NCBI GenBank assembly: GCA_965267575.1
Contig: OZ254086.1
Span: forward strand, 2,439,805 to 2,503,804
Direction of reading: 5' to 3'
Length of the DNA: 64,000 bases
DNA from: Calditrichales bacterium
Lineage (GTDB): Bacteria; Calditrichota; Calditrichia; Calditrichales; J004
This document shows positions 3,001 through 54,578 of the stretch, piece by piece. Positions within the stretch are counted from its first letter, which is position 1, and every line of letters starts with the position of its first letter. Position numbers and translations under genes: made by a program. The notes beneath the pieces were generated by a model that was given only the letters and a program-made list of their open reading frames with translations, did not search any database and was not told where the DNA came from.

Positions 3001-4006
3001 CTACAGCACCTTCTGGAAAAAGATGCTTTTTCAGCCGCAGGGCCAGCAGGCCGTGACCCTGGAGCAGGCCGGAAGAGACGGGTTGGTCACACCGGCCGTT
3101 TACTGGTATCAATACAAAGATGACAGGCAGGGCTATGATTGGGCTGCGCTGGATTCTGCGTACAGCATGCCCTGGCGCGGGTTCTGGCTGCAAAGTACAA
3201 CGCCCGGCAGGTTATACTTCACCACAGAGGCCGCTGATCTTTTTGAAATGCGCAAGGCCAACGCCATTGTCGGGCTGGCAAAAGGACAATCCGCGCAAGG
3301 CTGGCGCCTTAATCTGACCCTCGAAAACGATAGCTATATAGACAAGGGCAACGTGATTGGCGAAGGGGGCAGCTTTATGCAACAGCGCATTGAAGAGCCG
3401 CCGCACTTTGGCAGCTACTGCGCTCTTAGCATAACATCAAACGGCAAAAACTGGACCCAGGATATCCGCGAACAGAGCGGCGATGTGCACAAGTGGGCGC
3501 TGCGGGTAAGCTCCCAGGAAGCATCGCGGGAACATCTTATCTACTGGAATCACCGCGTGCTTGAAGAACAGGGTGTTTTTCTTTTCCTTGTTGATCCGCG
3601 CAACGGAACGGCCATAGAGATGAACAGCGAGAGCAGCTACCGCTTTACGCCATCCCGCGAGACAGTGGCATTTGAAATTTACGCGTCCTACGATCCTGCC
3701 TTTGAACCGGTGATCGTTCCCGAAACATTGCGCCTGGAGCAGAACTATCCCAATCCTTTCAATCCGGCCACAACGATTCGTTTTGCCGTACCGGGCAGTG
3801 ACGCGCAGAATGTGCGCCTGGAAGTATTCAATACCTTGGGCCAGCAGGTGGCTGTTTTAACTGACAAAAAATACAAGCCCGGCTATCATGACCTGCAATG
3901 GAAGGGTGTTGACCACAGTGGCCGACCATTGCCGGCCGGCGTTTATTTCTACCGCTTAAAGGCCGCTGGCAACCAGCTTGTGCGCAAGATGGTGCTGTTG
4001 AAATAA
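2..4006 (+). CDS. Large secreted adhesin-like protein, 5'-truncated by the window edge. Beta-helix-like repeats, He_PIG/cadherin-like Ig repeats and a T9SS C-terminal sorting domain.
   Basis: The frame of ORF 179..4006 stays open back to nt 2 (FGYWKGIIAGATADSVSLHW...), so the ATG at 179 is internal. Repeats of the type DDDGDELSITILQSPQWLGL...GTPALGDTGTH and NDAPRF. C-terminus QNYPNPFNPATTIRF...GVYFYRLKAAGNQLVRKMVLLK. Confidence 0.8.
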   Translation, partial: FGYWKGIIAGATADSVSLHWFSLEGAETAIASEGASVSLTLGGIEDNLSGLHLNNAALTMKNVNFDSNATAISLAGTSVANIKNINILRSLSSGLEAGTGTTVNLSNSILWANPVSVSSAAGSNVSVRYSTVDSINGPADVFSVSKLPPLFNDADTAYFQPLLMSPTIDAGDPADNYSMEPLPNGKRVNQGLYGGTFFATPTFQPKLTILQDSLSFSAPLGGADTLNLRLRNTGNVPLQLNSVTVADPAAFRVSAPGTTVGAGESSIIRIIFRASERAVYHDKLVINSSDPHAPVKTIDLRGDVTNRLPYFVTNPATQARVGQFYSQPLEARDDDGDELSITILQSPQWLGLNADALEGTPALGDTGTHAVSVQAQDVLGGTGRLDFDVHVTFINGAPQWSVSDTLLVNEDESAVFDLAEFVSDDDTAPDLLRFEVTAVSDSQNIKYALDKSALSISPAADYFSEETDWLRVSATDAGGLNSVGQLFLVVTPQNDAPRFTALRDTVLYTHLEYRRTWPVSEVDGDLLTFADNTSLFNINDAGQIAFTPTLQDTGAHEVVLSASDGFFTVSDTVIFSIMPNVVPAPETLFLSARDRAIDLSFRVHPSEFYSGTIVVISGEAAVNAPDQGLLTLDTVFAVADSAVNANVAIDDLGINRRYYVSVFNYYDENGVIYSRPIQGQIQTPAPRLVLPERSSRFVLPVNKTQTAAIKVKNDGGGTLQGKWIYTPDSLTQVWFHADTAGRAIAPGDSAEFEINLHPNKYMPRGNRQVTLAFVSNDPLQQGGATFSVVLEPIFDDFAPRVVWQSLPDSILRQSALVAHYALDDTSGRPIGDPPAALQSAWRLQKLDGDIVAATDSSSDLAARVYPLEDGVYRLTVWGFDSEGNGVDASSASHFAFRVQASAIVLPAKRWLLVGLPRPHEGTWQQFSDSTRRLYKWDNAEERYLTDSEFASSTAVDGQAVWMISERPVPVDMSGHRQPGAQDTLAVDIVTGWNQVAVPVSYSTFWKKMLFQPQGQQAVTLEQAGRDGLVTPAVYWYQYKDDRQGYDWAALDSAYSMPWRGFWLQSTTPGRLYFTTEAADLFEMRKANAIVGLAKGQSAQGWRLNLTLENDSYIDKGNVIGEGGSFMQQRIEEPPHFGSYCALSITSNGKNWTQDIREQSGDVHKWALRVSSQEASREHLIYWNHRVLEEQGVFLFLVDPRNGTAIEMNSESSYRFTPSRETVAFEIYASYDPAFEPVIVPETLRLEQNYPNPFNPATTIRFAVPGSDAQNVRLEVFNTLGQQVAVLTDKKYKPGYHDLQWKGVDHSGRPLPAGVYFYRLKAAGNQLVRKMVLLK

Positions 4007-4099: not shown

Positions 4100-4831
4100 T
4101 TAGCGGAGAGTACGCAGTACTTTTATAGCGTTTTTGTTTTTTGGGTTAAGTTGCAGTGATTTATTGTAGTGCACCCGCGCGTTGCTGCTGTCTCCGCTTG
4201 CCAGGTAAGCTTCGCCCAGGCTGTCATGCACATTTGCCGATTGCGGATAAAACTTGGCATTCAGCTTAAATACAGCCAGGGCATCGCCGACGCTTTGCTC
4301 CATAACGCGGTAGCCAAAATAATTCAATGAGCCTTCACCGAAATCAAAAGTAAAACCGCCATAATAGCGTTTCCTGAGTTCGCCATATTTATCCAGCGCC
4401 GCTTCAAGTCCCTGCTCTTCATAGCTTTCCAGCAACACCAGGTAAAGATGCTTTGGCTCTTTGTAGCCGCGGTGGCAGGTCATACAGGCAACACCTGTTG
4501 CTTGCGGGTCGTGCCGCCTTACTTCTCCGATAAATCTATCGTTGATCAGCCGTGTCATTTTAATCATTTCGCGGGCAATTTTCTTTTGCGGCTTGGCATC
4601 CGAAGCAAAATCTATCTGTTCAAGTTTTTTGCCTTTACTGTCGTCGTGGCAATGGTTGCAGCGTACACCAAGCGATGTGCTGAACGCGATCATCTCTCTC
4701 TTCAGATCATCTGCACTGATGGAATCGCTGAAAACCTGCAGGTTCTTGCGTTCCATATCCCACGAAAATTGGGCCTGGAGAGGGGAGATCAAGTTTACCG
4801 CCAGACCACACATTACAATGATTTTCAACAT
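4100..4831 (-). CDS. Secreted dihaem c-type cytochrome (reaction-centre cytochrome c subunit-like haem motifs) fused to C-terminal TPR repeats
   Basis: Two CxxCH motifs (VRCNHCH, ACMTCHRG) with the K..AREMIKMTRLIN context. Signal peptide MLKIIVMCGLAVNLISPLQA. TPR-like tail (EAYLASGDSSNARVHYNKSLQLNP). Start moved to the ATG at 4831, which is preceded by GGAGGA; the longer ORF would overlap the upstream gene. Confidence 0.75.
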   Translation of the reverse strand: MLKIIVMCGLAVNLISPLQAQFSWDMERKNLQVFSDSISADDLKREMIAFSTSLGVRCNHCHDDSKGKKLEQIDFASDAKPQKKIAREMIKMTRLINDRFIGEVRRHDPQATGVACMTCHRGYKEPKHLYLVLLESYEEQGLEAALDKYGELRKRYYGGFTFDFGEGSLNYFGYRVMEQSVGDALAVFKLNAKFYPQSANVHDSLGEAYLASGDSSNARVHYNKSLQLNPKNKNAIKVLRTLR

Positions 4832-8787: not shown

Positions 8788-11319
8788 ATGGGAAAAAAGG
8801 CACTTCTGCTTATCCTTTTATTTTTTCTTCCCGCATCTCTTCTTTCACAAATCCGGCACGTGGAATCATTTGAGAACACGGCTAATGATACACATTATTG
8901 GCAATTACGGACCTCGCCTAACGCCGCGGACAGTCTCGGTTTTATCGCCCTGAAGGACGATTCCATGCACTTTATGGAGGGCAATGCCTCTTTGCGGATG
9001 GACTGGAGCGTTGATAACTGCGAGATATGGGGCGGGCTTTCAAGAATTGAACACTGGCTGCCGGGTGACAGCTTGTTTGATATTGCCTTTTATGACACGC
9101 TTTCCCTCTGGTATTATGTCGACCAGCCGGCCTCCGCGCCTGGCGCCGTTGAGCTGCGCCTGCTTTTGTTTGATGTAAGTGACAGCGAGAAAGGAAACAT
9201 AAGCGATTGTTCGGATTCCGTGGAAGTGTATTACTCTTTTCATTATATCCTGGATCAGGCACCCGGTTGGCAGCGCCTGCTGATTCCGCTGAAGCAGAGT
9301 ATGTCACTCGGTGAGCAGGGATTCAATTTAACGCAATGGAGCGGAATCTCCGGTAATGAGGTGTTGGACCTGGATAAGATAAAGGGCTATGCGTTTGAGT
9401 TTGCTATCAGCCAGGATACTGACAGTTACAAGGTTGATGGCACTTTGCATATGGATGCCATGTCTGTTTTTACGACGCGCGACCGCCACGACTTTATTTT
9501 TAACGGAATCGCTTATCCGGCCAACATAACTGCTTCATATATCGGACAGGACGGCGGTATAGAGATTTCTGAAGAAGAATCCTACTCGGCTTCCAAAAGT
9601 ATCAAATGGACAACCTCCGCCAATGAACTATTTACCGGTCCTGTTTTCACTTTCGAGCAACCGCTTGATTACAGTCTGCATTGGCAAAAGGCGCCGCTCA
9701 GTTTCAAGTTGCGCATGGGCGAAGCGCGCGGCGATATAAAGATCGTTATCAGCGATGATGACAGCGATGGCGACGGACCCGATCAGTCTTTTTACGCGGA
9801 AGATGTTATTGAGAGCATGTGGATGAATTACAATGGATTCTGGGATGCCTTCCGGATGCCGCTGCAGAATTTTGATCGTTTTGCCGGCGCGGCGCCAATG
9901 GACTCCTCGCGGCTTTGGCAGGTCAGGTTTCTTATTACGGACAGCGCCAGCCTGGGCAAAACAATCTACATGGATGACATCTTGTTAGGTGAACCCTTTG
10001 ATTCCGGCAGGCCAGAGCAGCCCGTTTTCACGGCATTTCCCGATGATGAAGCCTACTGTAATGTTATCTCCTGGGAAGATCTATCTGTAGAAACAAATGA
10101 ATCCTACACCATTTATTACAGCGAAGCACCCATCACGCCGCAAAACTTTCACAGTGATGACGTTGAAGTGGCTGCGGCCGGCATCCCTGCGGACGTACAG
10201 TTTTTCCGCCACCGGCTTATCGCACCCCTGAACGACCGCGAGTTGAACTATTACTACGCCGTAACCTGCGTTGATATTAGGGGAAACGAGAGCTTGCCTG
10301 TTGACGATTGTCTTGTTGTAAACCAGGGCAGGGGCTGGGCGGTTATTTCCTATCTGCCGGCATTTCCGTTCAGCGCAGATGGGAATCTGGCGGAGTGGAC
10401 CGACCAGAAGCCGTTCATCATGAAACCGTCGGATGGCAGCGGGACGATTGTTGATGGTACGACCATCGACGGAGACGCTGACCTTTCCGCGCGGATATGG
10501 CTGGCCTGTGATGCCGAAGCACTTTACGTGGCCTTTGAAATAGAGGACGATACGCTGATTTGCGGCATGCCCGAACGCGACCTGTGGGATAATGATTCGC
10601 CGGAACTCTTCATCGGGCTATACAATGCCCATAACCTGCCGCATGAAGAACAGCAAGGAGGCAGCGAGCCGGACTATCAATTCAACTTTGGCACGGCAGG
10701 CGTTTTTCATCATGTGTCCGGGCTCTTTGTTGTCGATTCTTCCTTTGCTGATTACCGTTTTGCCGCAGGCAACGGGCAATACAGGGTTGAAGCACGGCTT
10801 CCCTTTGAGCGGATTGCCGCTTTGCGTCCCGATTCACTCTTCGTGCCGCAGCCCGGACAACGCATCCCGCTGGATGTTTCGATAAATGACATCGATTCAG
10901 GAAATAAGCGCGACGGTATTTTAACACTATCGCCGGATAACCAGGATATGTCCTGGCGCGATGTGAGCCGCTGGAGCCACACCTGGGTTTGGGATGAGGC
11001 AAACGCCCTGCATGAGCCTTTGAATATGCTGCCATCGGAACTTGAATTGCTTCCCAACTTCCCCAATCCGTTCAATGCTGAAACCACTTTAAGATTTACG
11101 GTTTCTTCCGGCAAAAGAAGGGCCGTGCGAATTACCGTCTATAACATCACGGGCCAGCAGATTACAGTGCTCGCGGACGATCTGTTTGAGCCCGGCGCGC
11201 ACCGGATTAGTTGGGATGGCAGCGATCATAACGGACAGCCTTTACCGGCCGGTGTCTATTTCTACCTTTTGGAGTCTGGCGCTACGCGGCTTGCCGGCAA
11301 AATGGTTCTTCTCAAATAG
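8788..11319 (+). CDS. Secreted protein with a CBM9/DOMON-like sugar-binding region and a T9SS C-terminal domain
   Basis: Signal peptide MGKKALLLILLFFLPASLLSQ. Region ARIWLACDAEALYVAFEIEDD resembles CBM9-type modules. C-terminus PNFPNPFNAETTLRF...GVYFYLL...GKMVLLK. Confidence 0.7.
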   Translation: MGKKALLLILLFFLPASLLSQIRHVESFENTANDTHYWQLRTSPNAADSLGFIALKDDSMHFMEGNASLRMDWSVDNCEIWGGLSRIEHWLPGDSLFDIAFYDTLSLWYYVDQPASAPGAVELRLLLFDVSDSEKGNISDCSDSVEVYYSFHYILDQAPGWQRLLIPLKQSMSLGEQGFNLTQWSGISGNEVLDLDKIKGYAFEFAISQDTDSYKVDGTLHMDAMSVFTTRDRHDFIFNGIAYPANITASYIGQDGGIEISEEESYSASKSIKWTTSANELFTGPVFTFEQPLDYSLHWQKAPLSFKLRMGEARGDIKIVISDDDSDGDGPDQSFYAEDVIESMWMNYNGFWDAFRMPLQNFDRFAGAAPMDSSRLWQVRFLITDSASLGKTIYMDDILLGEPFDSGRPEQPVFTAFPDDEAYCNVISWEDLSVETNESYTIYYSEAPITPQNFHSDDVEVAAAGIPADVQFFRHRLIAPLNDRELNYYYAVTCVDIRGNESLPVDDCLVVNQGRGWAVISYLPAFPFSADGNLAEWTDQKPFIMKPSDGSGTIVDGTTIDGDADLSARIWLACDAEALYVAFEIEDDTLICGMPERDLWDNDSPELFIGLYNAHNLPHEEQQGGSEPDYQFNFGTAGVFHHVSGLFVVDSSFADYRFAAGNGQYRVEARLPFERIAALRPDSLFVPQPGQRIPLDVSINDIDSGNKRDGILTLSPDNQDMSWRDVSRWSHTWVWDEANALHEPLNMLPSELELLPNFPNPFNAETTLRFTVSSGKRRAVRITVYNITGQQITVLADDLFEPGAHRISWDGSDHNGQPLPAGVYFYLLESGATRLAGKMVLLK

Positions 11320-44798: not shown

Positions 44799-47478
<2,680 letters not shown>

Positions 47479-48008
47479 TATATAATCAAATGTAAAGAGC
47501 TTCGTTTAATTATATAAAAGTTTTACCGTGTAATGTTTGTTCTTTTATCGGGGAGTGATTATACTAAACCCATTCTGCTTGATTCTTCGTTTGTCTCAAT
47601 CTGCGGTTTGTTTTTAAGATTGTCGAAATTTTAGCTGATTAAAAAAACTGACTATTTTATTTGCCCAATGGTCCTGGCATTGATATTACTTATTTAGCCA
47701 ACGTATTTAGATCCATAGATCCTGGTTGCTGATCTGATGGGGTCTTATTTAACAGACGTTATCTTTATATAGGCAAATAAGCCGTTTGAAATAAGAAATC
47801 TGTGATCAGGAGAGCATATGGATTCTTCTTATTCTTTTGCAAAAAGAGAGTTAATTCGTTGTAGTCGCACATACACAGATTGTGTAAGTCCCCGGTCCCC
47901 TCAGGATTTTTATTTAAAAGTATGTTTTAAATACATGTTTGACTGCTTCTGACAGGTCATGCTTTTTCTATTACGTTTTTAAAGTCAAGAAAAAGGAAGG
48001 ATTAAATT

Positions 48009-49607
48009 ATGAAGCATACTTTAAAGGTAATAATATTTCTTATAGGTGTTTGTTCTGTACACGGCCAAACACCTCAATGGCTATGGGCACAAGAGGGTGG
48101 TGGAGACGACATTGTTGTGGATGGCTTGGGCAACATTCTTGTGGCGGTGGATGATGGCACTTCCGGGGACGATTTAATTTCTAAATATGATGAGAATGGA
48201 AATTTGATTTGGACTGAGCAGGCAGATGGCGTTGCTAGGCGCATCGCTGTGGATGCCTCCGGCAATTATTTGGTAACCGGAACTTTTGAAGGTATTGCGT
48301 TCTTCGGAGATACAAATCTGGTGACCGCCGGTGGAGAGGATATCTTTCTTGCAAAATATGATGGAGCCGGCAATTTGCTTTGGGTAGAACAAGCGGGCGG
48401 ACAGTGGGACGATGTAGGACGTGGTGTCACTGTAGATGCTTCCGGCGGCGATATCCTATTGACTGGAGATTTTTGGTATACTAGTACTTTTGGTGACACT
48501 GCCCTAACCAGCGAGGGCGATAATGATTTTTTCCTTGCAAAATATGATGGAAATGGCAACTTGCGTTGGATCAAACAAACAGGTGGATCTGAATTAGATA
48601 GAGGTTTAAGTATTGCTGTTGACGAGTCAGGAAACAGCCTGGTGGCCGGAGATACCTTCGGTGGAGCAACCTTTGGTGATACAACGTTAACCGATCCCGC
48701 TATCTTTATCGCCAAATATGACATGAATGGGAAATTAGTTTGGGTTGAAACAGGGGAGTATATTAGATATATCGAAGATATTGCAGTTGACGGATTCGGT
48801 AATTGTTTTATTACCGGATCATTTACTGGCACTGCAACCTTTGGCGATACGACCTTGACAAGTATAGACGGAACTCCTGACGTCTTTGTTACTAAGTATG
48901 ATGGAAATGGCAACTGGATATGGACTAGGCAAGCTGGTGGGGCATCAGGTAATCATGTTTATAGTGACGCTGGACAAAGCATCGCGGTAGACAATTCAGG
49001 CAATAGCCTGATAACAGGATATTTTTCTGAGACGGCAATATTTGGAGATACAATTCTTACAAGTGCCGGAGGATATGATGTTTTTGTTTCAAAATATGAT
49101 GCTGATGGTAATATGATTTGGACCGAACAAGTTGGTGGTGAAGGCGGTTCCTTTACTTCTGAATCGGGCCGCGGCATAGCTGTCGATGCTTCGGGCAACG
49201 CTCTGGTAAGCGGAAGGTTCTTCGGTCCAGCAGCCTTTGGTGATACCACCATTGGTAGCTACCAAAGTCGATTTATCGCTAAAATCGGAGATGTTACTAC
49301 AGGAATTGAAACTACTTTAGCTTCACCAAATAATTTTCGTGTACACCAAAATTACCCCAACCCATTTAACCCGGCGACCACAATCAAATACCAGCTACCC
49401 AAGTCTGCACAGGTGGAGCTTACCGTTTATAATCTACTCGGACAAAAGGTGATAACGCTGGTTAGTGCATTTCAAACCGCAGGGGAAAAATCTGTGGTTT
49501 GGGATGGCACAAATGCCGCCGAGCAGCCGGTGGGCACCGGTATTTATTTTTATAGTCTGCAGACTGGGGATTTTACGGATACACGAAAGATGTTGCTGGT
49601 GCGGTAG
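48009..49607 (+). CDS. SBBP-type beta-propeller repeat protein with a T9SS C-terminal domain
   Basis: About 8 repeats of the pattern G..IAVD.SGN..VTG.F.GTA.FGDT.LTS.G..D.F..KYD..GN..W. C-terminus QNYPNPFNPATTIKY...GIYFYSL...RKMLLVR. Confidence 0.8.
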   Translation: MKHTLKVIIFLIGVCSVHGQTPQWLWAQEGGGDDIVVDGLGNILVAVDDGTSGDDLISKYDENGNLIWTEQADGVARRIAVDASGNYLVTGTFEGIAFFGDTNLVTAGGEDIFLAKYDGAGNLLWVEQAGGQWDDVGRGVTVDASGGDILLTGDFWYTSTFGDTALTSEGDNDFFLAKYDGNGNLRWIKQTGGSELDRGLSIAVDESGNSLVAGDTFGGATFGDTTLTDPAIFIAKYDMNGKLVWVETGEYIRYIEDIAVDGFGNCFITGSFTGTATFGDTTLTSIDGTPDVFVTKYDGNGNWIWTRQAGGASGNHVYSDAGQSIAVDNSGNSLITGYFSETAIFGDTILTSAGGYDVFVSKYDADGNMIWTEQVGGEGGSFTSESGRGIAVDASGNALVSGRFFGPAAFGDTTIGSYQSRFIAKIGDVTTGIETTLASPNNFRVHQNYPNPFNPATTIKYQLPKSAQVELTVYNLLGQKVITLVSAFQTAGEKSVVWDGTNAAEQPVGTGIYFYSLQTGDFTDTRKMLLVR

Positions 49608-49618
49608 AAGTTTTTTGT

Positions 49619-50155
49619 TTGTCACGGAATTTCTTCTCCGCCTGGAACAAGGTGATGAACCTGGACCGCTTAGATCTGCAATAGGGATTGAATGATTGAA
49701 ATTAAAGGCTCCGTGGGTGTTTGGCCCGCGGGGCCTTTTTTGTTTTGGGGTATTTTATGTGGCGTACCGATGGCACGTAGGTTTTTTGTAGATGCCGTTT
49801 TCTACCTATGTTTTGTCCCTGCGGGACATATCTGAAGTATGGATTGATTCAAGTAATTGTTGATTTATGCGTAATATTCGATCGTATGTTTTTGAAGAAT
49901 CCGCATTTCATTGGTAGGCAGCATTATTCACCGTCCGTCCCGTAAGGGACATGATATGGGTAGAATGGGTATACGAAATACAGGGGTCTGGGCCGCTAGG
50001 TACAGTATGTAATACGACGCGATTGAAATACATAAATGTGAATCGATGCATAAATCGGACACGAAATTTTCTCCCCATTAAATGATCTTATGGTGTACCG
50101 ACGGTATGCTCGGTTTTTTGTAGATGCTGTTGTCTACCCATGTTTTGTCCCGAGG
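49619..50155 (+). repeat. Direct repeat copy 2: katG 3' fragment (non-functional) + terminator copy + REP-like units
   Basis: CGCCTGGAACAAGGTGATGAACCTGGACCGCTT.GATCTGCAAT.AGGATTGAATGATTGAAATTAAAGGCTCCGTGGG... matches 46948 onward. Confidence 0.85.
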
Positions 50156-50730
50156 GGACAAAACGAATAAACCGGTAAAATATCTGTCCAAAGATTTAAT
50201 CGTTTATTTTGACGAATCGAGTCTGTCCCGAAGGGACGCAATATGGGTAGACTAGGAGGTTTTCGTAATCTCATTCTGTGCCGTCAGGTACAGCGCAAAA
50301 GCGGACCCAATAAATATGTGTGGAGAATTTGAAGTGTACCGATGGCACACCCGGATACATGTTTGCGTGGCCGGTTACCTATGTATTGTCCCTTCGGGAC
50401 ACACCTGTATTTCAATAGTAATGATCTTTCCCGTCCCGAAGGGACATAATATGGGTAGCGCATGGCGTGATTGATTAAACCCGGTTTGTACCTTCAGGTA
50501 CAGTACAAAAACGGACCCAATAAATCTTTGTGGTCAATTTTAAAGCGTACCGATGGTACGCCCGCATCTATATTTACTTGATGTGCCTACCTATGTGTTG
50601 TTCCTTCGGGACACTACTTTATGTTTGAGGTTTGATTGTTGTGATGCCAATATTTCTATCCCGTCCCGAAGGGACATAATATGGGTAGACAAGGAGGTTA
50701 ATTTAACCCGACCTGTACCGTCAGGTACAA
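49762..50730 (+). repeat. REP-like array upstream of the Y1 transposase gene: four units, each of four hairpins (A, B, B', A')
   Basis: A = GCGTACCGATGGTACGC-like (49762, 50093, 50334, 50545). B = CTACCYATGTNTTGTCCCTTCGGGACA (49801, 50132, 50373, 50585). B' = GTCCCGAAGGGACATAATATGGGTAGA (49937, 50225, 50433, 50663). A' = CTGTACCGTCAGGTACAG-like (49988, 50277, 50486, 50713). Confidence 0.8.
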
Positions 50731-51371
50731 CATTAAAGCCAGATGCAATGAAATTCGTCTAAATTATTCCTATATTTTCTCCATAAGACTCCCACGTAAA
50801 AAAAACAAAATTTTATCACAAACCTAAAATACACCATGGCAAACACCTATACCCAAATTCATATTCACACCGTCTTCGCTGTTCAAAATCGTCAAAGCCT
50901 GATCGCTGATACATGGGAAACTGACCTCTATAAATACATCAATGGCATCGTTAAAAATAATGGTCATAAACTGCTTCAGATTAACGGCATGCCGGACCAT
51001 GTGCATCTCCTGGTGGGCTTGCGACCGATCCAGGCATTGTCGGAGTTAATGAAATACGTAAAGCAGGATTCGTCCAAGTGGATCAACCAAAACCGTTTTG
51101 CTAAGGGGCGCTTTTCGTGGCAGGCCGGTTACGGAGCGTTTTCGCTGTCACGTTCTCAAGTGCCACAGGTGATAAGCTACATCAGGAACCAAAAAGAACA
51201 CCACCGCAAGAAAAGCTTTAGAGAAGAATACGTAGAGTTTTTGGAGCGAAGCGGGATTGAATATGATACGCAATATATTTTTAAGCCGATTGAATAATCG
51301 GGTGGCGTACCCTAGGCACGCCCGCTTCAGCATCTACATTTTGGCTACCCATGTGCCGTCCCTTCGGGACA
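50663..51371 (+). mobile_element. Putative minimal RAYT-bearing element: B'/A' hairpins, Y1 transposase gene, A/B hairpins (inverted termini)
   Basis: B' at 50663..50689 and B at 51343..51371 are reverse complements of one another and bracket the transposase gene. The same B'...B arrangement recurs without a gene as modules of about 180 bp. Confidence 0.55.
50836..51297 (+). CDS. IS200/IS605-like HUH Y1 transposase, REP-associated tyrosine transposase (RAYT)-type
   Basis: HUH motif PDHVHLLV (H55-V-H57, nt 50998-51006) and catalytic Tyr context VISYIRNQKEHH (Y115, nt 51178-51180). 153 aa. Flanked by hairpin repeats. Confidence 0.88.
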   Translation: MANTYTQIHIHTVFAVQNRQSLIADTWETDLYKYINGIVKNNGHKLLQINGMPDHVHLLVGLRPIQALSELMKYVKQDSSKWINQNRFAKGRFSWQAGYGAFSLSRSQVPQVISYIRNQKEHHRKKSFREEYVEFLERSGIEYDTQYIFKPIE

Positions 51372-51679
51372 TGTACCTGTGGTAATTGTCAGATTGGTTC
51401 CGTCTCGAAGGGACTTAATGTGGGTAAAATGGCGTGATTGATCAGACCCCGGTTTGTGCCGTCAGGTACAGTATAATAACGGATGCCCATGTATCTGTTG
51501 CGCGGAATTTTGTAGCGTACCGATGGCACGCTTGATACATATTTTATTGGCCGGTCTACCTATGTTTTGTCCCTTCGGGACATGCATGCGATACTTGTAT
51601 TGCTTGGTTCTGTCCCGAAGGGACATAATGTGGGTAGAATGGAATAAGCAATATCTTCCGGTCTGTGCCGTCAGGTACG
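51305..51679 (+). repeat. REP-like array downstream of the Y1 transposase gene: two A-B-B'-A' units
   Basis: A at 51305 and 51515; B at 51343 and 51554; B' at 51401 and 51612; A' at 51454 and 51662. Same orientation as the upstream units. Confidence 0.8.
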
Positions 51680-51808
51680 GAATAGAAAAAGGAAACCCGC
51701 CCAGTTTATCAATATATTTTTTCCAGATGACGCTGGGCAAAACATTAAAAACGTTTTATGGTGATCGAAATATTTTTAAATCCTTTTTGAATGATCTGAC
51801 GGTGAACT

Positions 51809-52672
51809 ATGGATGCACTAGATAAAGCAAAACTGAGCCTCCGTGGTCTGGCTACGGGTGACGCATTTGGAGAGCGTCTTGCCGGACTGGCCATGGAGTC
51901 TTTTGTGAAAACGCGCAAGCTGCCGGAGGGAATCTGGCGTTGGACAGACGACACGGCCATGGCCATCTCAGTTGTCGAAAATCTGCGCGACTTTGGATCG
52001 ATCAACCAGGATGAGCTGGCGCAATCCTTTGCAAAACGCTACCGCACCGATCGTTACCGTGGCTACGGTGCCGGCGTGCATCTTCTGCTTACACAACTCA
52101 GTGAAGGTGCCGATTGGCGTGCTGCCGCGCCCGCCCTGTTTGATGGCGGCTCCTATGGCAACGGCGCCTCCATGCGTATTGCCCCGTTGGGCGGCTACTA
52201 TTCCGGCAATCCGGAGAAGGCAGCACAAGAAGCGGCGAAATCGGCGGTTATAACCCATGCCCACCAGGAGGCGCAGGCCGGCGCGATGGCTATTGCTGTG
52301 GCTGCAGCCCTGGCCGCGACGCAACAAAAAATGGGCCGTAACCCCTTTATTGAGGCCGTTTTGGATTTTGTGCCGGAAAGTGAAGTGGCTTCTAAAATGT
52401 ATCTTTCACGGGTTATAGAAAAAGATAAAACCGCGTTGGCCGTCCAGGCGTTGGGCAACGGTTCGCGGATTTCGGCACAGGACACGGTGCCGTTTTGCGT
52501 CTGGTGTGCCGCCAATAACCTCGTTGATTATGAAGCTGCTCTCTGGCAAACGGTTTCCGGTGGAGGCGATCAGGATACCACTTGCGCCATGGTTGGCGGT
52601 ATTGTTGCTTTGTCCTGCGGCTCTATCCCGCAAAACCTGGCAAAACAGACCGAAGAATTGCCGGAGATATAA
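51809..52672 (+). CDS. ADP-ribosylglycohydrolase-family protein
   Basis: GLATGDAFGE...WTDDTAMA...GNGASMRIAPLG...GGDQDTTCAMVGGI matches the ARH/DraG metal-binding motifs. Confidence 0.85.
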   Translation: MDALDKAKLSLRGLATGDAFGERLAGLAMESFVKTRKLPEGIWRWTDDTAMAISVVENLRDFGSINQDELAQSFAKRYRTDRYRGYGAGVHLLLTQLSEGADWRAAAPALFDGGSYGNGASMRIAPLGGYYSGNPEKAAQEAAKSAVITHAHQEAQAGAMAIAVAAALAATQQKMGRNPFIEAVLDFVPESEVASKMYLSRVIEKDKTALAVQALGNGSRISAQDTVPFCVWCAANNLVDYEAALWQTVSGGGDQDTTCAMVGGIVALSCGSIPQNLAKQTEELPEI

Positions 52673-53250: not shown

Positions 53251-53388
53251 ATGAATAGAAGAAATAAAGCTGTCTCTCTCGGAGCCGGCGCAGGAATGAT
53301 CGCCGGATGGCTGGCAGGTAATATTGCGGCCGGCATGGTGCTGGGCGCTTTTGCGGGATTACTGGCGGACTATTTAAAAAACAAGTAG
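53251..53388 (+). CDS. 45-aa glycine-zipper-like miniprotein (below the ORF-track cutoff)
   Basis: MNRRNKAVSLGAGAGMIAGWLAGNIAAGMVLGAFAGLLADYLKNK, with an upstream AAGGAAA. Confidence 0.4.
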   Translation: MNRRNKAVSLGAGAGMIAGWLAGNIAAGMVLGAFAGLLADYLKNK

Positions 53389-53433
53389 AATCCATTTAAC
53401 AAAAGCTTATAGTAAACTATCCGGAGGATTAAG

Positions 53434-54033
53434 ATGAGAACACGGTTTCAAGCTGTGATTGTTGCCTTAAGCTTTATCGGTGCGCCGATTTTAATGTTGA
53501 TCACGGATACCCTTAATCTGCTTACGCCCGGTCAATATCAATGGTTTGCCTCGGTTACTTTTTGGTTTTCATTTTGTGCCTATGTTGCGGTTATAATGGG
53601 CATGGTCAAATTGTCCGGCGACACCAACCTGGCGAGCGTTGCCGCCATACTGGCCATCATGGGCACCTTGATCGGCATTACCATAATCGGAACATCCAGG
53701 GTCGGGATGTCGATGCTTATGCAAGGTATTGAAAAAGAAATGATAATGGCAGCCATGTACGAGCCCATCGTTTTCTTTACCAGCCGCGCGCCGGGGATTC
53801 TTTTTCCTGTGGGCCTTATCCTTTTGACTATAACTATGAAGAAAGCCGGCTCTATAAATACGGTTAATAGCGCTATTTTACTTGTAGGGATAATTCTCTT
53901 CCCGGTGGGCAGGATTCCTCAAATGGTGGGCTTCAATGTTGCCGGGGATATTTTGATGCTTATCGTTTTGGCACAGATTGGGCTTAACATAATTAAACGG
54001 CGCGTAGAGTTAGATACGGGCAGCGCGTCATGA
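53434..54033 (+). CDS. Multi-TM membrane protein, unknown function
   Basis: About 6 hydrophobic helices. GGAGGA RBS upstream. Confidence 0.55.
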   Translation: MRTRFQAVIVALSFIGAPILMLITDTLNLLTPGQYQWFASVTFWFSFCAYVAVIMGMVKLSGDTNLASVAAILAIMGTLIGITIIGTSRVGMSMLMQGIEKEMIMAAMYEPIVFFTSRAPGILFPVGLILLTITMKKAGSINTVNSAILLVGIILFPVGRIPQMVGFNVAGDILMLIVLAQIGLNIIKRRVELDTGSAS

Positions 54034-54578
54034 GTCCTTCCAATACTAAAACAAAAGTCGTCCAGCGTCTTTTTATTGCACAGATTGCACTGGTGATGAC
54101 GTTCACGCTGTTGACATTTCTCGCCTATTCCTGGCCGGAACGTATAGGTTCCTATTTCTTTGCGGCCATCCTGGGCTGTCTCGGCGGCAGCATCACCCTG
54201 TTGCGGCGTGTTAAAAAAGAAGCCGGCACGCTGGTGGAGGAAATGGCGGCCTCGTGGATTGCCACGCTGATGCCGCTGCTCTATGCCGGGCTGATGGCCA
54301 GCGTGGCCTACCTGCTTTTCATGTCGGGCATTGTTTCCGGGGACGGTGGCAACGGGCTGCTTTCCAGCAACCTGTTTCCAAATTTTACAAACCCAAATCC
54401 GGACGGTGCCGAATTGCTCTCCTTTAAACATGTGGCACAGATGCGCCCGGCCTCTTTACAGGATTTGGGCAAGCTGATGGTCTGGTGTTTCCTGGCCGGC
54501 TACTCGGAGCGCTTTGTCATCGGTATTTTAAAACAACTGGAGCGCAAGGGTGCGTCGTCGTCAAAACACGTTGATTAA
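54030..54578 (+). CDS. Multi-TM membrane protein, unknown function
   Basis: 4-nt overlap with the upstream gene. About 4 TM helices. Confidence 0.55.
   Translation: MSPSNTKTKVVQRLFIAQIALVMTFTLLTFLAYSWPERIGSYFFAAILGCLGGSITLLRRVKKEAGTLVEEMAASWIATLMPLLYAGLMASVAYLLFMSGIVSGDGGNGLLSSNLFPNFTNPNPDGAELLSFKHVAQMRPASLQDLGKLMVWCFLAGYSERFVIGILKQLERKGASSSKHVD

Follow-up and report, generated by a model that had tools for sequence, protein, structure and literature searches.

A probable REPtron-like locus formed by a TnpA-Y1 gene with the subclass 1.2 signature and inverted copies of a two-hairpin repeat in a Calditrichales bacterium

Repetitive extragenic palindromes (REPs), together with the tyrosine transposases associated with them (RAYTs), are the standard example of a bacterial transposase that has been domesticated. 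In E. coli, TnpA-REP binds single-stranded REP, needs both the GTAG tag and a mismatch in the stem, and cuts in the inverted partner and in the linkers at sites between C and T, one of which lies inside CTAC, the complement of the GTAG tag (PMC3333891). It was proposed that bacterial interspersed mosaic elements (BIMEs) amplify locally while the REPtron does not move (Ton-Hoang et al. 2012, PMC3333891). Another group of enzymes, TnpA-Y1 subclass 1.2, was characterised by Quentin, Siguier, Chandler and Fichant (2018, PMC6006769) by a length of about 148 amino acids (aa), by DH[IV]H, WQ and YIKNQKEHH, by a conserved C-terminal domain and by hosts among Cyanobacteria and Bacteroidetes, the mean copy number per genome being 1.7 with 36% identity between copies, compared with 4.8 copies at 99.4% for subclass 1.1. 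This subclass was listed there as 'REP: no', without insertion sequence (IS) properties and with function unknown. Here we analyse a stretch of 64 kb from a Calditrichales bacterium (contig OZ254086.1; the whole stretch is called the window), in which a single-strand-DNA transposase gene, tnpA, lies among inverted copies of a repeat of about 73 nt, called unit U. We consider it probable, with some reserve, that the locus is a REPtron/BIME-like system, where a resident subclass 1.2 HUH/Y1 gene is placed among copies of its own cognate element and acts on them by a mechanism of the kind proposed below. What is new here is a conserved repeat partner for subclass 1.2, while the REPtron/BIME-type arrangement is already known.

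The gene at the centre of the locus is as follows.

50836-51297, plus strand: tnpA, open reading frame (ORF) of 153 aa, HUH/Y1 single-strand-DNA transposase

Its product matches Y1_Tnp in Pfam (E = 1e-28) and passes the NCBIfam IS200 equivalog model NF033573 with 76.1 bits against a cutoff of 55. The protein has DHVH at 54-57, WQ at 95-96 and Y115 in YIRNQKEHH, and thus HVH at 55-57 and Y115 are confirmed where the initial annotation, a reading of the DNA without database searches, had placed them. No variation at DHVH, W95-Q96, Y115, Q119, H122 and H123 is seen in sets of 26 and of 32 homologues, and in the C-terminal tail F128, E131, Y132, L136 and F149 are conserved. By contrast, the protein reaches only 34.9 bits with the NCBIfam model REP_Tyr_transpos, with a cutoff of 80, and in place of the class-2 Y motif Y---NP it has Y---Q--HH (YIRNQ). 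The first description of the protein as RAYT-type is therefore given up, and tnpA is rejected as a canonical RAYT. The nearest solved structures are ISDra2 TnpA (E = 4e-8) and then IS608 TnpA, which are close enough to serve as a starting comparison for the enzyme, and E. coli TnpA-REP (4ER8) is unmatched at E <= 1. An AlphaFold model (mean predicted local distance difference test, pLDDT, of 54; shallow alignment of 32 sequences) is too poor for a fold search. As compared with the published subclass 1.2, the protein carries the signature, with 153 aa versus a median of 148, with DHVH, WQ and YIRNQKEHH versus YIKNQKEHH and with a conserved C-terminal tail, so that it may be placed as IS200-like class 1, TnpA-Y1 subclass 1.2, the placement being by motif match. 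The hosts are also alike. The closest named relatives are in Balneolaceae and Rhodohalobacter, further ones being in Cytophagia and Bacteroidetes, and one homologue flanked by units is on a contig labelled Cyanobium. The suggestion that the host belongs to the Fibrobacterota-Chlorobiota-Bacteroidota (FCB) group is supported by these relatives and by a neighbouring gene having a type IX secretion system (T9SS) sorting tail. Unlike in the published description, a conserved two-hairpin repeat flanks the gene, both in the window and in 75 of 80 loci from other organisms. It is noted that the automatic REP search in that survey required a stem of no fewer than 7 bp with GT[AG]G at 0-2 nt 5' of it (PMC6006769), and thus, with a 5' tag and so long a stem being required, U could not be found by it; REP searches tuned to the proteobacterial geometry miss whole families.

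In order, unit U comprises hairpin 1, a stretch of 8 nt, the GGTAG tag, some 25 variable nt and hairpin 2. In the window hairpin 1 is GTCCC-GAA-GGGAC, of 13 nt with a 3-nt loop, which corrects an earlier form, GTCCC-TTCG-GGGAC, having one G too many; across units its stem is 5-6 bp and its loop is of the form G..A. Hairpin 2 takes the form CTGTGCC-GTCA-GGTACAG or GCGTGCC-ATC-GGTACGC, with a core GTGCC-loop-GGTAC that has a conserved G·T wobble. Of the unpaired parts of U, the best conserved is the GGTAG tag, which lies 8 nt 3' of hairpin 1 and about 22-27 nt 5' of hairpin 2. The conserved box noticed at first as GGGTAG is real, but rather than outside each GTCCC hairpin it lies, in the module reading, on the inner side and 7-8 nt away. 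The four motifs A, B, B' and A' of the first reading are all present where they had been put and are far above chance. In the window the GTCCC-loop-GGGAC pattern has 12 matches versus 0.14 expected, the A palindrome 14 versus 0.72 and the A' palindrome 7 versus 0.01. They are not four separate elements, since A-B on the minus strand and B'-A' on the plus strand align over their full length as two inverted copies of U, with the plus-strand (L) and minus-strand (R) units forming two consistent subtypes. In single-stranded DNA (ssDNA), U folds as two hairpins, seen in both units flanking tnpA.

With a covariance model of U, R1, built from 25 units, a scan of the window gives 15 full units, all with E <= 4e-12 and all located at 47079-47482 and 49759-51683, as given below.

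47079-47150, minus strand: U, R-type, directly past the katG terminator (R1 76.2 bits)
47254-47328, plus strand: U, L-type (R1 66.0 bits)
47410-47482, minus strand: U, R-type, with hairpin 1 broken at the arm/loop junction (47466, GTCCC followed at the break by TTCCGGAT), where a duplication stops (R1 54.3 bits; alignments)
49759-49830, minus strand: U, R-type (R1 72.3 bits)
49934-50008, plus strand: U, L-type, start of the gene-less module 49937-50160 (R1 63.2 bits)
50090-50162, minus strand: U, R-type, end of the same module (R1 66.0 bits)
50222-50296, plus strand: U, L-type, start of the gene-less module 50225-50401 (R1 64.1 bits)
50331-50403, minus strand: U, R-type, end of the same module (R1 65.6 bits)
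50430-50506, plus strand: U, L-type, start of the gene-less module 50433-50613 (R1 63.6 bits)
50542-50615, minus strand: U, R-type, end of the same module (R1 64.1 bits)
50660-50733, plus strand: U, L-type, left flank of tnpA, with hairpin 1 GTCCC-GAA-GGGAC, then ATAATATG, GGTAG, 25 nt and hairpin 2 CTGTACC-GTCA-GGTACA (R1 72.9 bits, E = 9e-17; fold)
51302-51373, minus strand: U, R-type, on the right of tnpA and inverted with respect to the left unit (R1 59.3 bits; alignment; fold)
51399-51474, plus strand: U, L-type, start of the gene-less module 51401-51582 (R1 58.3 bits)
51512-51584, minus strand: U, R-type, end of the same module (R1 72.2 bits)
51609-51683, plus strand: U, L-type, last unit, with no R partner (R1 72.4 bits)

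The units alternate in inverted orientation around the single tnpA. In a gene-less module of about 180 bp a conserved linker of about 40 nt joins an L unit to an R unit, and in the module of 709 bp at 50663-51371 the ends are the same while tnpA replaces the linker. The module coordinates of the initial annotation, and its picture of inverted hairpin repeats on both sides of an HUH/Y1 gene, along with derivatives lacking the gene, are borne out. The array that it delimited at 49762-51679 is present too, while its extent is larger, with three more units at 47079-47482. The same families are recovered by a repeat finder, spaced at about 208-211 bp and, across tnpA, at about 740 bp. The spacers between modules, from B to B', are 29-108 nt, variable and poorly conserved. 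The module 50433-50613 folds as a whole into one long ssDNA hairpin (z = -5.05), and the gene-less inverted unit pairs with their conserved linker are REPIN-like modules, after the REP doublets forming hairpins (REPINs).

The pairing in U is supported by sequences from other organisms. In 142 distinct units from loci fetched by protein, 94.8% of the alignment cells pair, 9 of the 11 pairs are changed on both sides and the both-side-changed cells number 195 versus 66.7 in shuffles, with none of 500 shuffles reaching 195, the alignment having been fitted to the structure of the model, which favours pairing; slid controls pair at only 34-56%. In the raw sequences the variants of the hairpin stems, namely GTCCC, ATCCC, GTTCC, ATTCC, ATGCC, GTGCC and GCCCC, also keep pairing. 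On the tag strand the hairpin loops are almost always of the form G/T...A (GTTA 53, GTA 35, GTCA 23, with GAA also occurring).

An important point to note is the strand of the wobble in hairpin 2. Read on the plus strand, G·T versus A·C is 15 to 0 upstream of the gene and 2 to 20 downstream of it, meaning that the G·T wobble sits on the strand that reads hairpin 1, tag, hairpin 2. As this strand switches between the two sides of the gene, the two ends are read on opposite strands. This is the geometry of REPtrons and REPINs, not the same-strand geometry of IS200/IS605. A similar asymmetry considered for hairpin 1 was dropped because its one-mismatch class is mostly background, with 112 observed versus about 73 expected.

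The composition of U varies among lineages. In many of them hairpin 2 is a second copy of hairpin 1, and in other organisms U is reduced to hairpin 1, 8 nt and GGTA, forming a seamless repeat of 25 nt where the final G of the tag is the first base of the next hairpin; only in these arrays does the tag abut a hairpin. The seamless arrays imply that the hairpin-1 foot and the tag serve as the two borders of a repeat that is complete in itself. Such arrays adjoin the gene in the loci L144 (4455-4900), L130 (2245-2382) and L148, and arrays with periods of 50, 56 and 59 nt are found at gene-less sites in metagenome-assembled genomes (MAGs) of Ferruginibacter and Flavobacteriales (L039, L090, L019). 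In some of the R-type units pairing is also possible between the CTACC box and a GTAGA upstream of it (for example TTTTTTGTAGATGCYGTTKTCTACC), which would give a small extra hairpin sequestering the tag; the sites are 49786-49806, 50118-50138 and 47107-47127 in the window and about 10490-10515 in the contig L001 described below. A search against Rfam gave two sub-threshold chance matches only.

The association of the gene with U can be examined by two routes. By the DNA route, in which one genome per species was scanned for GTCCCNNNGGGACNNNANRTRGGTAG with a chance expectation, by our estimate, of about 17 matches, at least 118 blocks were obtained, nearly all from Bacteroidota orders among the matches listed. 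A tnpA homologue (52-71% identity) is directly beside the motif in 15 of these at least 118 blocks, and about 100, again among the matches listed, are gene-less copies in the form of solo units, inverted doublets and direct tandem arrays. By the protein route, in which 80 metagenome loci were fetched by protein alone (relatives at 58-74% identity), R1 finds U in 75 of the 80 loci, with 255 matches in total. With a simple pattern, a U pointing inwards is present upstream in 38 of 78 loci and downstream in 45 of 73, compared with 10 and 12 loci, respectively, for the opposite orientation; on the flanks beyond 1 kb this pattern is seen once in 171 kb. A sequence-neutral descriptor, consisting of any perfect 5-bp stem, 6-9 nt and GGTA[GA], reaches 4.26 matches per kb up to 200 nt from the gene versus 0.012 per kb beyond 1 kb, and has almost no matches in shuffled flanks. 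The absence of the motifs from relatives, which had been named beforehand as a finding that would speak against the locus being REPtron-like, is thus not what is seen, as the motifs are found in relatives and, more widely, across Bacteroidota. Salinimicrobium, Algoriphagus and a Balneolaceae MAG share the four-part architecture, and in L114, the contig labelled Cyanobium, the gene has two tandem gene-less modules adjoining it. Units are also observed on other contigs binned outside Bacteroidota, namely L021, L087 and L110 (Verrucomicrobiota), L033 and L043 (Planctomycetota) and L081 (Limnohabitans), which together with L114 (a Cyanobium MAG) may reflect horizontal spread or mis-binning. Carriage by phages was rejected, as there is one motif match in 2.9 million viral contigs and it lies inside an apparent coding sequence.

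Whether the gene is resident or mobile can be judged from a syntenic relative, the metagenome contig L001, where the tnpA protein is 87.6% identical and the flanks are 85-91% identical in DNA. The gene order there (katG, array with the gene, GNAT acetyltransferase, resistance-nodulation-division (RND) pump) matches that of the window, and the same unit types are present, with the number and order of modules being different. Between the window and L001 (10001-10462), tnpA has a ratio of nonsynonymous to synonymous divergence (dN/dS) of 0.044, i.e., strong purifying selection. A solo unit is found at one orthologous site in two Rhodohalobacter species, as 1 copy versus 2, the exact tnpA protein sequence is recorded for a single contig, and tblastn gives no second tnpA copy in the 64-kb window. 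Based on the synteny with L001, the purifying selection, the Rhodohalobacter solo unit, the single record and the near-absence of the motif from viral contigs, a host-resident gene with an array turning over locally is favoured, though not proved, the comparison covering the 64-kb window of the source genome. This makes doubtful the earlier view of the 709-bp module as an autonomous-like copy, given that the gene is at the same locus in the relative. L001 also contains, at 940-1388, a second and frameshifted Y1_Tnp gene of 35-43% identity to the first, flanked by different long direct repeats (about 560-900 and about 1400-1720) and having no counterpart in the window; this gene with its repeats is a distinct Y1/repeat system.

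Placed beside the described systems, the locus is like the REPtron/BIME-2 arrangement of E. coli, with a single, probably resident Y1 gene, inverted pairs of two subtypes in tandem, a copy number at the locus that varies between relatives and gene-less inverted doublets, seen here in other organisms. Its layout had been thought unlike that of BIMEs, whereas alternating inverted units of two subtypes in tandem are what BIME-2 and REPtrons have (PMC3333891). The tag contains GTAG, and the stem has a conserved imperfection, which is a G·T wobble here and a mismatch in E. coli. By contrast, the tnpA protein is of class 1 and E. coli TnpA-REP of class 2; U is about 73 nt with two short hairpins versus one long hairpin; the tag of U is 8 nt 3' of hairpin 1 whereas in REPs GT[AG]G is 0-2 nt 5' of the hairpin foot; and the dispersed copy number appears much lower here. 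As in the REPIN-RAYT systems (Bertels and Rainey 2011, PMC3116915), the gene-less module is made of two inverted units and a spacer that can form one long ssDNA hairpin and the gene looks vertically kept at one locus, but the modules of about 180 bp stay in a cluster beside the gene, where those systems have hundreds of dispersed copies, and the sequence of U is conserved throughout a phylum and not specific to one species. With IS200/IS605 (IS200, IS608, ISDra2) the locus shares the best relatives in sequence and structure databases and a single-ORF element of about 0.7 kb with hairpins near both ends; it differs in having ends that are inverted copies lying on opposite strands, a gene in synteny between relatives, a low reported copy number and the Y motif Y---Q--HH versus Y[IV]ENQ. 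The cyanobacterial miniature transposable elements of the inverted-repeat type (MITEs) Nezha/ISNpu3 were set aside by their description, which gives terminal inverted repeats with direct repeats, and no link to U was found. In the literature library searched, no paper with any of the five hairpin sequences looked for was found; the survey by Quentin et al. (PMC6006769), which reports no associated repeats, was the only description of subclass 1.2 found, and no paper linking REPIN/RAYT work to Bacteroidetes was found beyond it.

We propose the following mechanism for the locus. The tnpA enzyme would bind U as folded single-stranded DNA, would tell the two strands apart by the hairpin shape, the wobble and the GGTAG tag, and would then cut and rejoin the DNA beside U. 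The cutting and rejoining may occur at or beside the tag and the hairpin-1 foot, on single-stranded DNA. The cut is placed here because of the seamless 25-nt arrays, because of the end of the duplication at 47466-47473 (described below) and because E. coli TnpA-REP cuts between C and T in CTAC; the inverted units in the window present CTACC. The outcome would be local amplification of modules, following the models of Ton-Hoang et al., with the module number shifting over time. Now and then copies of U could be seeded elsewhere in the genome, with the tnpA gene itself expected to stay put.

Among the other explanations, the one that survives best, although it is unlikely, is that the 709-bp module is an ordinary autonomous IS of the IS200 family, the modules of about 180 bp being MITE-like internal deletions of it and the array having arisen by serial insertion at a hot spot next to an existing end. 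This would agree with the passing of the IS200 equivalog model (76 bits versus 55), with ISDra2 and IS608 TnpA being the nearest structures, with both ends and the linker region being common to gene-less and gene-bearing modules and with the variable spacers between modules, as separate insertions would give; moreover, in two Haliscomenobacter species the homology around the gene begins only about 540 bp upstream. However, the ends are inverted copies read on opposite strands while those of IS200/IS605 are processed on one strand, and synteny of the gene holds in a relative with flanks at a synonymous divergence (dS) of 0.3-1.0. The low copy number and low identity between copies in subclass 1.2 (PMC6006769) also speak against such an IS, as do the occurrence of the exact protein on one recorded contig and the lack of a second copy in the 64 kb.

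Quite improbable is a second explanation, that hairpin 1 with GGTAG is a host REP-like family and that hairpin 2-tnpA-hairpin 2 is an IS200-like element inserting into its inverted pairs, with GGTAG as the target and left cleavage site. The left cleavage site of IS608 is about 19 nt 5' of its hairpin, to which the distance of about 22-27 nt between GGTAG and hairpin 2 is comparable. Many dispersed copies elsewhere consist of hairpin 1 and tag only, with periods of 25, 50, 56 and 59 nt and no A-type hairpin 2, and REPs are known targets of other insertion sequences, e.g. ISPpu9. But hairpin 2 is on both sides of every gene-less module in the window, L001, L119 and L114, no empty inverted pair without hairpin 2 is seen in this lineage, and hairpin 2 is often a second hairpin 1, so that both look like parts of one unit. 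The last explanation, in which the array is a structural or regulatory element of the host (stem-loop terminators or stabilisers of mRNA) grown by slippage or unequal recombination with the transposase as a bystander, is very improbable, since, although the array is intergenic between same-strand genes and begins right past the katG terminator, a few A hairpins are followed by T runs, and the periodicity of about 210 bp and the 528-bp duplication show that recombination or duplication acts at the locus, the units track the gene rather than the host context in 75 of 80 unrelated loci with a fixed orientation to it, the asymmetry of the wobble is reversed between the two sides of the gene, for which a single direction of transcription does not account, Rfam gives no match, and the terminator reading is rejected for most units as they have no T run.

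Some points weigh against the REPtron/BIME-like reading itself. The 709-bp module is about the size of an IS200, and judged by sequence the tnpA protein is nearer to true IS200/IS605 transposases than to RAYTs. The dispersal in relatives looks low, much sparser than that of classical REPs, as the 171 kb of flanking DNA lying over 1 kb from the gene has 1-2 motifs, and in the window itself the R1 scan finds no U in the other 59 kb or so. The dS of tnpA versus L001 is 1.64, compared with 0.33-0.98 for the neighbouring genes, and with so high a dS tnpA may have been replaced by a paralogue at the shared site. To these is added the fitted alignment behind the covariation counts.

Beyond the REPtron/BIME-like reading, we put forward tentatively a broader proposal, which can be entertained nearly as readily as doubted, that subclass 1.2 is a second domestication of an IS200-type enzyme, separate from the class-2 RAYTs and having its own two-hairpin, 3'-tagged repeat of about 73 nt. 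In this proposal the sequence of U would have been near-constant across Bacteroidota orders for as long as the protein, and possibly beyond the phylum. If it is true, the orphan subclass 1.2 gains its first DNA substrate, and this would suggest that a Y1 enzyme came to be paired with genomic hairpin repeats either on more than one occasion or already before classes 1 and 2 separated. The conserved, strand-specific DNA partner gives subclass 1.2 a concrete candidate substrate for binding and cleavage assays.

Finally, we note some features around the array. An ADP-ribosylglycohydrolase gene is at 51809-52672 and an ORF of 199 aa with no Pfam match is at 53434-54033; the segments holding them, about 51730-52596 and 53383-54071, have no detectable match in L001 in a comparison at the DNA level only. 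On the other side, part of the array lies in a direct duplication of 528 bp, with the two copies as follows.

46944-47471, plus strand: left copy, with the last 65 bp or so of katG, the terminator and three units (95.4% identical to 49618-50151)
49618-50151, plus strand: right copy, with a dead katG 3' remnant, a copy of the terminator and the first three units of the main array (alignment)

The katG terminator is at 47029-47061 and its copy at 49704-49738, and the left copy of the duplication stops exactly at the arm/loop junction of a hairpin 1 (47466-47473). The duplication brackets a segment of 2.1 kb (47472-49617) that is absent from L001 and consists of a leader of 33% G+C and a 532-aa SBBP-repeat protein with a T9SS sorting tail. 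The arrangement looks as if a circle had integrated through recombination inside the array, or like a nick-driven event. In a Balneolaceae MAG (L119:4052-4325) an isolated gene-less module is located between imperfect direct repeats of about 70 bp (about 3900-4000 and about 4340-4440), which appear to be the 5' end of the neighbouring gene, making this a second case of a long flanking duplication beside a module.

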